Shown here one piece after another: positions 16,430-19,341 of a stretch of 33,414 nt of DNA. Position 1 is the first letter of the stretch; the number at the start of each line of letters is the position of its first letter. The stretch is taken from positions 1 through 33,414 of IMG/VR virus record IMGVR_UViG_3300012931_000017; one strand, 5' to 3'. Made by a program: the position numbers and the translations under genes. The notes beneath the pieces were generated by a model that ran no database searches, was not told where the DNA came from, and was given only the letters and a program-made list of their open reading frames with translations. Origin of the DNA: a virus.

Positions 16430-17857
16430 TTAATTATTCCAATTCCATAATTCACCGAATGTCAACGTTTTCTTTTCTCCATTCTTATTTATATTTATAC
16501 GAGAAGTTTTTTCAGAACATGCGTATTCCTGATTAAAAAATACAACCCCTCTATCTCTTATTAGATTTTTCTTAAAATTTTCGTCACGATCAGGATGTTC
16601 CCACCAATTTACTTTAACTGGGAAGAATGTATTTTTACCTTTAACTGCATCAATCCAGATATTATAATAATGATTCATACCATTAGGAGTAGAGACTATA
16701 ATAATTTTAGTAGTTTTACCAGAAGAGATAGTAGGCCAAACTGAATCCATAAATTCAGAGGCTATATTAGAAGCTACAAAAGCGAACTCATCTAAAAATA
16801 GACAATTAGAAACTAGTAAACCATTAGCATAAAATCTATTACCATTAGCTACATTAAGTAAATCGTATACATAAGGACTTATGCTTAGATTTTCTGTAGC
16901 GGTAACAGTTTCAAAACCATCTTTAGATTTAATAGAATCACCAACTTTATAAAAATGTCCAAATTGTTTTTCATTATCATTAAAAAACACTTCATGCCTT
17001 CTAGTTAATTCAAGGAATGAATTGTCTGTTGTGATTTTTAGAATATTATTATTTCGTACTTTCTGTTCAGATAGACCATAAAAATTTTGAAATCCATTAG
17101 GAGTTAAGACATCATATTTGGTATTAAGGAATATATTAAACTTCTTTCTTATTTTATCATTAAATAAAAGTCTTAGTTCTTTGATAGTAACATCGGATAC
17201 TTCTTTGGTTAATTTATCTCTAATGGTTACTTTATTATTTTCCGTTAGGCAGTTTATAGAATAACCTCTAATAGCAGAACTAGCTGTTGATGCTGATAAT
17301 ATTCTAGTTCCATTACCTAAAGTTATAGAAGCTTTATTCCACCCACCTTCAACTATACCTGGTTGTAACCAATAAGGTAAATTCTCATAAACCATTTTTA
17401 TTCTATTCATAATTTCAATAGCAGTTTTCTCTTTATTAGCTAAAACAGCTACTGTTTTATGTTCATTAAATATTGCGTAGTGAGTTAAATAAACTGAAGA
17501 AACTGTAGTATTATGTGAGAGTATTCCTGAAGTGTAATATGTATGGTTTTCTGAACCAACCGATAAATCATACATACTTTCTTTATAACCAAGATTCCTT
17601 ACCGATTTAACAGATTCTAATCCAGTCTTGGTTATTATCCTTTGCCCAATTTTCAAATCCTTCGTAAAGACTTCATTGTAAAATTCATCCATTACAATGT
17701 GATCATCGGCACATTGTAATGTATAATTGTCAGTTGATAGTTCCCATACTTCAAATTCTATAGTTTTATTGGTATGAGTTATATCTTCCCATCCAGTATC
17801 AGTCTCTACTTCCCAGTCATCAACTTCAAACGTTTCAATAAACTTATCTGCTATCAT
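16430..17857 (-). CDS. terL: Terminase large subunit fragment 2: IntC-a (aa 1-116), ATPase-domain extein, contiguous mini-intein (aa 203-351), extein with Walker B, then IntN-b (aa 447-475)
   Basis: The extein TTVSSVYLTHYAIFNEHKTVAVLANKEKTAIE...LQPGIVEGGWNKASITLGNG...STASSAIRGYSIN is colinear with T4 gp17 [29 protein letters not shown]...LQPGIVEWNKGSIELDNG...ASSPDAVRGNSFA. The following extein CLFLDEFAFVASN...SSGKTTKIIIVSTPNGMNHYYNIWIDAVKGK matches MIYIDECAFIPNF...SSGRRSKIIITTTPNGLNHFYDIWTAAVEGK. The segments between are intein-like (see intein features). Confidence 0.9.
   Translation of the reverse strand: MIADKFIETFEVDDWEVETDTGWEDITHTNKTIEFEVWELSTDNYTLQCADDHIVMDEFYNEVFTKDLKIGQRIITKTGLESVKSVRNLGYKESMYDLSVGSENHTYYTSGILSHNTTVSSVYLTHYAIFNEHKTVAVLANKEKTAIEIMNRIKMVYENLPYWLQPGIVEGGWNKASITLGNGTRILSASTASSAIRGYSINCLTENNKVTIRDKLTKEVSDVTIKELRLLFNDKIRKKFNIFLNTKYDVLTPNGFQNFYGLSEQKVRNNNILKITTDNSFLELTRRHEVFFNDNEKQFGHFYKVGDSIKSKDGFETVTATENLSISPYVYDLLNVANGNRFYANGLLVSNCLFLDEFAFVASNIASEFMDSVWPTISSGKTTKIIIVSTPNGMNHYYNIWIDAVKGKNTFFPVKVNWWEHPDRDENFKKNLIRDRGVVFFNQEYACSEKTSRININKNGEKKTLTFGELWNWNN
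16433..16519 (-). mobile_element. Split intein b, N-terminal half (IntN-b, 29 aa) ending at the ORF stop
   Basis: ...FNQEYA|CSEKTSRININKNGEKKTLTFGELWNWNN*. The extein FNQEYA plus CKFIGSTNTLIDSEVL (from ORF 12811..13908) aligns without a gap to T4 [22 protein letters not shown]. IntN-b is similar to IntN-a (KIRIRNKNTGKIVELSIGQF vs RININKNGEKKTLTFGELW). The Cys codon aca is at 16517-16519. Confidence 0.75.
16805..17251 (-). mobile_element. Contiguous 149-aa mini-intein (no endonuclease domain) inserted just upstream of the terminase Walker B
   Basis: It interrupts RGYSIN|...|CLFLDEFAF (T4: RGNSFAMIYIDECAF). It starts with Cys (CLTENNKVTIRD...; the tgc codon is at 17249-17251). It contains the T-x-x-H block ELTRRHEVF. 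It ends ...NRFYANGLLVSN followed by Cys+1. The penultimate residue is Ser rather than His. Confidence 0.75.
17510..17857 (-). mobile_element. Split intein a, C-terminal half (IntC-a, 116 aa)
   Basis: MIADKFIETFEVDDWEVETDTGWEDITH...YTLQCADDHIVMDE...MYDLSVGSENHTYYTSGILSHN|T. Block F/G is (D-L-x-V...H-x-Y...GIL-x-HN), followed by Thr+1. That Thr restores the P-loop GK-T. The Asn116 codon is att at 17510-17512, and the Thr codon agt is at 17507-17509. Confidence 0.85.
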
Positions 17858-18788
17858 TTCCTTTCTGATCTCCTAAAAAATCTATACATTTCTTTATTAC
17901 TTCATCTTTATTCTTGTAGTATGAGAGTTCATCAATATGCAAAATATCACAATTTATAGTTTCAACTATTTCAGTATCTCTTATTTCATCTAATGTTTTA
18001 TCACTATTATGCAAATATTGTTTTTTAGTTTCATGAAATTTATGCCAATATGCACCATCAAACTCAATACACTTATTAATAGACTTTATATAAAAATCCA
18101 TCTTTCTTACATGTTCTTTAGTTTTAACTCTAAATTCATAATTACAATTATCGTTTAAATTAATACCTTCTTTATAAGTAGCAAAGAAAATATCATCATT
18201 TGAATATTTACCTTTAATAATTTCATAAATATTCCAAAATAATTCCTGACTAGCTTTTGAATAATTTTGCTTTTTAAAACTCTTACTCCACTTCTCTGTA
18301 ATATCATTTCTTTTTTCTTTAGCTTCTTCTAAAGTGCATCCCTCTCTCTTCATTATCTTATCAACTGAATTAGTAGTTTGTCTTTCTCTAACCTTCTCTC
18401 TAGCCTCTTCTTCAGTGAATCCTTTTTTCTTCCAATATCCAATCTGATTTTCACACGATTCACCTTTAGCAAAAGTAATTTTACAATTCTCTGAAGCTAC
18501 TTTCACTCTATTAGTATTCTTATTGTAGTACAAAACATTACAATTTTTATTAAAACAGAAACTATTAAAATGTCCTCGTTTCTTTGAAAATCCTACATCA
18601 GCTCCACACCATAAACAATGTCCATCAGATTCTCCTTCTTTCAAAAGATATTTCTTGTAATATTCAGGATAACCACCAATATCCTTATGATCCTTATTAA
18701 TGTGACGAGTTAATCCTTTCTTAAAATCCGCAGTATAACCACATTCTTTACACACGAGTTCATCACCAGACATACAAAATCCCTTCAT
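17844..18788 (-). CDS. Freestanding homing endonuclease: N-terminal C2H2 zinc finger(s) plus C-terminal Vsr-like (EDxHD-family-like) nuclease domain
   Basis: It lies between the two halves of split intein a. CKECGYTADFKKGLTRHINKDH is a canonical C-x2-C-x12-H-x4-H finger. The C-terminal ...MDFYIKSINKCIEFDGAYWHKFHETKKQYLHN resembles the Vsr FVxGCFWH core, as in I-Bth0305I-type endonucleases. It overlaps terminase fragment 2 by 14 nt. That fragment's RBS (AGGAG/AAAGGAA) lies inside this gene's 3' end. Confidence 0.7.
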   Translation of the reverse strand: MKGFCMSGDELVCKECGYTADFKKGLTRHINKDHKDIGGYPEYYKKYLLKEGESDGHCLWCGADVGFSKKRGHFNSFCFNKNCNVLYYNKNTNRVKVASENCKITFAKGESCENQIGYWKKKGFTEEEAREKVRERQTTNSVDKIMKREGCTLEEAKEKRNDITEKWSKSFKKQNYSKASQELFWNIYEIIKGKYSNDDIFFATYKEGINLNDNCNYEFRVKTKEHVRKMDFYIKSINKCIEFDGAYWHKFHETKKQYLHNSDKTLDEIRDTEIVETINCDILHIDELSYYKNKDEVIKKCIDFLGDQKGNDSR

Positions 18789-18887
18789 TAAAATTATAAA
18801 TTATAGTTTTATTAATAGTTGTAGAAAATTAAGAATCTTATGAAGACAAATTCAAAATAAGCGGCAATCATTAATCTTTTATAATAT

Positions 18888-18916
18888 ATAATATAATTTT
18901 AAAGTATAATTGTCAA
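18888..18916 (-). promoter_or_regulatory. Near-consensus sigma70-type promoter (TTGACA-17 nt-TATTAT) driving the inter-intein endonuclease gene
   Basis: Minus strand: TTGACA (plus 18911-18916 'tgtcaa'), a 17-nt spacer ATTATACTTTAAAATTA, then TATTAT (plus 18888-18893 'ataata'). It lies ~90 nt upstream of the ATG at 18788, inside the 163-nt gap that separates terminase fragment 1 from the endonuclease gene. Confidence 0.45.
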
Positions 18917-18951
18917 GAACTATTTTCATTATTTATGATTTTAATTATTTT

Positions 18952-19341
18952 CTACTTTATCTTGGGTTTAATCATTTCATGAAACTGGCCAATGCTTAAT
19001 TCAACTATTTTCCCCGTATTTTTATTTCTTATTCTAATTTTTCCCCAATAATTTATACATTTGCCTGCTTGGCGGGGGCAAAGAACCACAAGATTTTGTT
19101 TTTGTTCCAACTCGCCATCTTCGTTTCTATATTCAGGAGACTTGTACATAGCTTTAAGCATTCTTTTTTGGAACTCCCAGAACTTGATTAATATTTTGCC
19201 TTTATCGACTGATATAATATTGCAATATTTTTCACCGAAGTAGAGGATATCGCTCATGCACTTAACGAACTCTACTTTCATATCATCGGTATAGATTATT
19301 TTATCATTAGCGTGTCTAAGATTAGCATTACCATTATACAT
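18952..19341 (-). CDS. terL: Terminase large subunit fragment 1: N-terminal extein through Walker A (aa 1-94), then IntN-a (aa 95-129)
   Basis: ...MKVEFVKCMSDILYFGEKYCNIISVDKGKILIKFWEFQKRMLKAM...LVVLCPRQAGK is colinear with T4 gp17 ...[41 protein letters not shown]...TVCNLSRQLGK(TT). The P-loop is cut after GK by CINYWGKIRIRNKNTGKIVELSIGQFHEMIKPKIK*. The Cys codon aca is at 19057-19059. Confidence 0.9.
   Translation of the reverse strand: MYNGNANLRHANDKIIYTDDMKVEFVKCMSDILYFGEKYCNIISVDKGKILIKFWEFQKRMLKAMYKSPEYRNEDGELEQKQNLVVLCPRQAGKCINYWGKIRIRNKNTGKIVELSIGQFHEMIKPKIK
18955..19059 (-). mobile_element. Split intein a, N-terminal half (IntN-a, 35 aa)
   Basis: It begins with Cys immediately after Walker A ...PRQAGK and runs to the stop codon. 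The short IntN paired with a long IntC (116 aa) makes this an 'atypical' split-intein architecture. Confidence 0.8.

Follow-up and report, generated by a model that had tools for sequence, protein, structure and literature searches.

Positions 19059..17510 of the window, by which we mean the whole stretch of 33,414 nucleotides analysed here, are very probably occupied by a composite mobile element lodged in the P-loop codons of a terminase gene. It comprises a class-1 intein (intein a), split after 35 residues, and a gene for a Vsr-like endonuclease. The split intein is very likely functional, and the terminase is almost certainly matured by protein trans-splicing. We infer the splicing, as well as the pairing specificity of the halves and the activity and target of the endonuclease. 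Arrangements of this kind are already known from phages, and the locus adds one more, leaving knowledge of how inteins work unchanged.

The terminase gene

The gene for the T4-type large terminase (TerL) is made up of three ORFs, all on the minus strand, as are the features described below. The first, F1 (19341..18952, 129 amino acids), reads ...LVVLCPRQAGK up to residue 94, continues with CINYWGKIRIRNKNTGKIVELSIGQFHEMIKPKIK and ends at a TAG stop. F2 (17857..16430, 475 amino acids) starts MIADKF..., reaches ...YYTSGILSHN at residue 116 and continues with TTVSSVYLTHYAIFN. Intein a is formed by the last 35 residues of F1 (IntN-a, 18955..19059, stop codon at 18954..18952) and the first 116 of F2 (IntC-a, 17510..17857). 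The coordinates and lengths given for it in the first-pass annotation, including the 35/116 division, all hold on the minus strand.

The extein is spread over the three ORFs. The N-extein (19060..19341, 94 amino acids) ends in the truncated Walker A motif ...CPRQAGK and aligns with the N-terminus of T4-like TerL. Middle extein 1 (17252..17509, 86 amino acids) begins with the +1 Thr, TTVSSVYLTHYAIFNEHK..., and middle extein 2 (16520..16804, 95 amino acids; Pfam Terminase_6N) runs from Walker B to ...FNQEYA. The C-extein (12811..13566, 251 amino acids) contains the nuclease domain, followed by a stop (Pfam Terminase_6C, E 3.6e-7).

Positions 91-169 of the PHROG terminase profile 5989 match residues 2-94 of F1, and the profile picks up again at position 169 with residue 116 of F2. 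Removal of IntN-a and IntC-a brings back a colinear Walker A motif, RQAGK-TT. The TerL spliced in silico has 526 amino acids. It gives a single unbroken alignment with T4-like TerL, colinear through RQ.GK-T, that spans 92-96% of its length (2,036 phage records, best E 2e-90). The PHROG, Pfam, PDB and spliced-TerL matches are well beyond chance. Because the break comes after only 94 extein residues and the remainder lies on two further polypeptides, TerL function needs splicing, in agreement with the splicing-dependent activity first proposed for it.

Empty sites and related loci

A close relative, L005, has an extein 81-83% identical to that of the window and is without IntN, endonuclease gene and IntC. 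It reads PRQVGK-TTVSAVYL without interruption, and its empty site lies exactly at the codon boundary between K and T, which confirms the placement of intein a between the Lys and Thr of Walker A. Directly after this site 36 of 45 nucleotides are identical between L005 and middle extein 1. The uninterrupted form PRQVGKTTVSAVYL, with the empty site at the same K and T codons, is found in L005 and P0046-P0054.

The layout of IntN, endonuclease gene and IntC also occurs in the relative L004, which has a 34-residue IntN and a homologous endonuclease gene of 418 amino acids, and in 24 related loci. In half of the homologous loci no gene lies between the halves, and the IntN and IntC ORFs overlap or are at most about 400 nt apart. 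The distance from IntN stop to IntC start ranges from -119 to about +400 nt, so the halves are truly separate ORFs.

In many phage contigs the pieces of intein a turn up again with their synteny preserved, and counts for the family reach at least 517 loci in IMG/VR, 2,952 cluster representatives and 323 records of cultured phages. Its members are found between the GK and the T or S of the P-loops of TerL, DnaB-like, SbcC-like and ClpB-like ATPases, and they are mostly split at the same early point. The split of intein a had been described as being of a rare atypical type; it is indeed of the atypical early type, but such inteins are rare only among those characterised, and the intein a family is common in phage metagenomes and mostly split there.

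The endonuclease gene between the halves

The first-pass annotation had the main points right but left out a homing-endonuclease gene. The stretch of about 1.1 kb between IntN-a and IntC-a is not spacer but holds a free-standing ORF (17844..18788), which encodes 314 amino acids from the first ATG or 309 from the ATG at 18773, preceded by AAGGGA. The protein contains one or more N-terminal C2H2 zinc fingers and a C-terminal Vsr-like/DUF559 (EDxHD-type) nuclease domain with the motif IEFDGAYWH. The motif is conserved, with E237, G240 and H244 invariant; residue E282 of the protein is nearly so, in a comparison that covers part of the EDxHD residues. The model has a Vsr/DUF559-type nuclease fold, as expected of the I-Bth0305I family. 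F1, the endonuclease ORF and F2 share one strand, as in the fractured genes of Dassa et al. (2009), and we regard the locus as a fractured gene in that sense because the endonuclease gene sits between the intein halves.

An AT-rich spacer (18789..18951, 15% GC) extends from the IntN-a stop to the endonuclease ORF. A consensus scan finds in it a sigma-70-like site, TTGACA-17-TATTAT (18916..18888, 11 of 12 matches), which is a putative promoter. Bases 18928..18880 share 86% identity with sequence 5' of another endonuclease-like gene in L005.

Group I introns can harbour Vsr-like endonucleases such as I-Bth0305I (PMC2677866; PMC3239194), and the ORF could in principle belong to a group I (or II) intron within a contiguous intein, with RNA splicing joining IntN to IntC before protein splicing in cis. 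We consider this improbable. A search with Rfam covariance models found no family in the window at gathering score; for 17400-19200 it found none even at E<=1, so that no intron RNA is matched between the halves, and RNA folding of the spacer gave no significant fold. IntN-a ends at an in-frame stop, the ATG of IntC marks a conserved N-terminus shared by about 45 homologous proteins, and the end of the endonuclease ORF overlaps the IntC-a ORF by 14 nt. In addition, several homologous loci that carry no gene between the halves have ORFs that overlap or leave a gap below 50 nt, which is too short for an intron.

The same overlap bears on how IntC-a is translated. The sequence 5' of its start is TTTTTTAGGAGATCAGAAAGGAA, followed directly by the ATG. 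These letters were quoted correctly in support of an own ribosome-binding site, but they offer weak support for one: the gap to the ATG is 14 nt from the end of AGGAG and only 1-2 nt from that of AAGGA, so that neither Shine-Dalgarno-like motif is at standard spacing. Because the endonuclease ORF overlaps by 14 nt, translational coupling is just as likely as a dedicated site.

Sequence and predicted fold of intein a

Cys1 of intein a is Cys95 of F1, directly after ...RQAGK. IntC-a (MIADKF...ILSHN) contains block B (CADDH), block F (MYD) and block G (SHN), with the block-B His53, the block-F Asp97 and the block-G His115-Asn116 all present. The Pfam family Intein_splicing matches residues 30-116 of F2 and runs through to its final position, at E 1.3e-5 and with a score under the gathering cut-off, and the joined intein matches the VidaL intein in the PDB (E 8.4e-6). 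IntN-a fits the family consensus (C1, I8, I10, R11, N12, K13, T15, G16, I18, E20, I23, G24, F26) at most of the first 27 positions; this consensus comes from 38 distinct homologues, among which IntN is strongly conserved.

The expectation that the IntN-a/IntC-a pair folds as a Hint domain was examined on an artificial single-chain fusion, and the prediction agrees with it. The AF2 model has a pLDDT of 90.4 and a pTM of 0.84, with IntN covered by only 4 of the 50 alignment rows. A Foldseek search of the PDB places VidaL at the top (E 1e-11, TM 0.78/0.86), and all of the best 50 matches are inteins or HINT domains. On the strength of this model intein a is confidently predicted to adopt the HINT fold. 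IntN-a is modelled as strand-strand-helix with a pLDDT of about 97 (strands 12-17 and 23-27, helix 28-35), and a linker of lower confidence lies at the junction with IntC (residues 36-45). The split is thus placed by the model just after helix alpha-1, at S2, as in AceL-TerL and GOS-TerL (naming of PMC13014065).

Intein a has the features of class 1 inteins: a Cys at position 1, blocks B, F and G, a predicted HINT fold and an in-frame site with intein-free alleles. It is also a natural atypical split intein, since its halves are on separate ORFs, one giving 35 amino acids and a stop and the other 116 amino acids from an ATG. The published range for natural atypical IntN fragments is 15-37 amino acids (PMC13014065).

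A further possibility is that TerL is a decaying pseudogene broken by endonuclease invasion, its intein pieces being relics and packaging being served by another gene. TerL is in three pieces, the second break contains five unrelated ORFs, and the window is only part of the genome. We nevertheless find this reading highly improbable. All three TerL ORFs are intact, and residues A50, D51, H53, M95, D97, I112, S114, H115 and N116 of IntC-a, splicing residues among them, are invariant in 31 diverged homologues. The same pieces keep their synteny across many phage contigs, three contigs on record encode the identical F1 protein, the cultured Campylobacter phage F379 has an equivalent split, and a second TerL was not found within the 33-kb window.

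Proposed mechanism

The split-intein element would yield three proteins: the N-extein with IntN, the endonuclease, and IntC with the rest of the ATPase domain. The 35-residue IntN, with its two strands and helix, would dock on the 116-residue IntC to complete a HINT domain. Cys1 would then form a thioester with Lys94, the acyl group would pass to the hydroxyl of Thr+1, and cyclisation of Asn116 would release the intein. An O-to-N shift would leave a native peptide bond and regenerate RQAGK-TT. Full-length TerL would require two more splicing events, intein b in cis and intein c in trans. Alleles that lack the intein are presumably cut by the endonuclease close to the P-loop codons, and the whole element would then be copied in during repair.

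The halves of split inteins bind tightly, and intein a has Ala in place of the Thr of the block-B TxxH motif, both of which would suit a non-covalent dimerisation module that holds terminase fragments together without splicing; this is very unlikely, as a 151-residue domain would stay between the P-loop Lys and Thr, the strict conservation of Cys1 (38 of 38 distinct family IntN sequences), His-Asn and the +1 residue (Thr in 45 and Ser in 6 of 51 homologues that are only 42-72% identical) would be unexplained without junction chemistry, and VidaL, with the same Ala (CAFNH), is active and splices fast (PMC13014065).

Inteins b and c

The same gene contains two further inteins. Intein b (16805..17251) is a contiguous mini-intein of 149 amino acids, CLTENN...LLVSN followed by C, located just before Walker B (LFLDEFAF). 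It is not in L005, its boundaries are exact, and it is 26% identical to intein a (E 1e-13). A split version is present in P0061.

Intein c, by its sequence, is the second intein of this gene with an atypical split and is of the AceL/GOS-TerL type. Its N-terminal half, IntN-c (16433..16519), has 29 amino acids, CSEKTSRININKNGEKKTLTFGELWNWNN, followed by a stop. IntC-c (13567..13896) has about 110 amino acids from the ATG at 13896 and ends ...ANNILNHN before a +1 Cys (CKFIGS). It matches Pfam Intein_splicing, and its best solved relative is CatC (6dsl), the AceL/GOS-TerL consensus (E 3e-5). Intein c sits between ...EYA and CKFIGS; once it is removed, FNQEYA-CKFIGS lines up with E.ECEFLGS, a conserved motif of T4-like TerL. 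Inteins a and c are 25% identical.

Significance of the locus

TerL is an essential packaging ATPase, and here its P-loop has to be ligated at the protein level before the enzyme can exist. One gene depends on splicing three times, twice between separate polypeptides, and the two split pairs of the window, a and c, must coexist in one cell without cross-reaction. Protein engineers look for atypical split inteins whose N-fragments are as small as peptides, and few have been characterised (AceL-TerL, GOS-TerL/Cat, VidaL and PolB16). Hundreds of diverged natural pairs are available in the intein a family, and they ask very little of the junctions (GK before the intein and T or S after it).

It is conceivable, and we suggest it tentatively, that the composite of intein a, with its short IntN, and zinc-finger/Vsr-like endonuclease repeatedly jumps between GK and T or S codons of unrelated phage ATPase genes, with the early split as the prevailing state. 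The host genes in this proposal are T4-type TerL, DnaB/gp41-like helicase, SbcC/gp46-like and ClpB-like genes. If it is correct, terminases are routinely built from at least three polypeptides by mutually orthogonal atypical split inteins, and the TerL of the window is a ready-made natural set, with a and c acting in trans and b in cis. We did not find the family described in these terms in the literature searched; such a description may exist in intein databases or in other papers.

Comparison with known systems

AceL, GOS and Cat are atypical TerL split inteins from metagenomic phages that trans-splice in vitro (PMC11766414); that source and PMC13014065 attribute AceL-TerL, GOS-TerL and Cat to Thiel 2014, Bachmann & Mootz 2015 and Stevens 2018. 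They resemble intein a in their phage TerL host, their IntN of 25-37 and IntC of 104-115 amino acids, the S2 split, class 1 chemistry and separate ORFs, but they have Cys+1, and their consensus C-fragment best matches intein c and not a. Intein a lies at the P-loop, about 250 extein residues upstream, and has Thr+1. The different site, Thr+1 and the identity of about 25% to intein c rule out an orthologue of AceL-TerL/GOS-TerL and make intein a a paralogue at another site.

VidaL (PDB 6vgv) is naturally atypically split and is the closest solved relative of intein a by sequence and fold. The two share the CA..H block B and the ...G.I.SH. C-terminus, at an identity of about 22%. In VidaL the split follows strand beta-2 (S1) and leaves a 16-residue IntN (PMC13014065), whereas IntN-a, at 35 residues, includes helix alpha-1, so a split of the VidaL type is ruled out.

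Several contiguous inteins are found at or near this site. Mycobacteriophage TerL1-a (Kelley 2016, PMC5050341) has the same insertion between the Walker A Lys and Thr, which Kelley et al. name the 'classic' P-loop site, but its host belongs to the Terminase_1 family and not to the T4-type Terminase_6. Ackermannviridae TerL genes also contain contiguous P-loop inteins (e.g. Vibrio phage Kuja and Salmonella phage Maynard, PMC3868846). That of Kuja, C...GILSHN between ARQSGK and TT, is a true homologue of intein a, 47% identical in the IntC part. Unlike intein a, these contiguous inteins are single ORFs that splice in cis and have no endonuclease gene in a split. The TerL intein of Campylobacter phage CP220 is likewise a single cis-splicing ORF, but its insertion is three residues upstream (between PRQ and SSKST).

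The fractured genes of Dassa et al. 2009 (PMC2677866), including a gp17-like terminase locus from Lake Gatun, have the same architecture, a Vsr-like endonuclease and a phage origin. The TerL gene of the window differs in having three inteins, two of them split. Campylobacter phage F379 / IBB_35 (MT932329; PMC3322345) is a cultured T4-related phage with TerL in two CDS around an endonuclease gene; the IBB_35 split was published as an intein plus intron (PMC3322345). As in the window, the first CDS ends in an IntN, which in F379 has 30 residues, and the second begins with a homologous IntC. The insertion in F379/IBB_35 is three residues upstream of the boundary between GK and T, and the endonuclease is not Vsr-like, judged by a GIY-YIG-like motif seen by eye. 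That a cultured phage carries a near-P-loop TerL intein split in the same way supports the viability of such a split.

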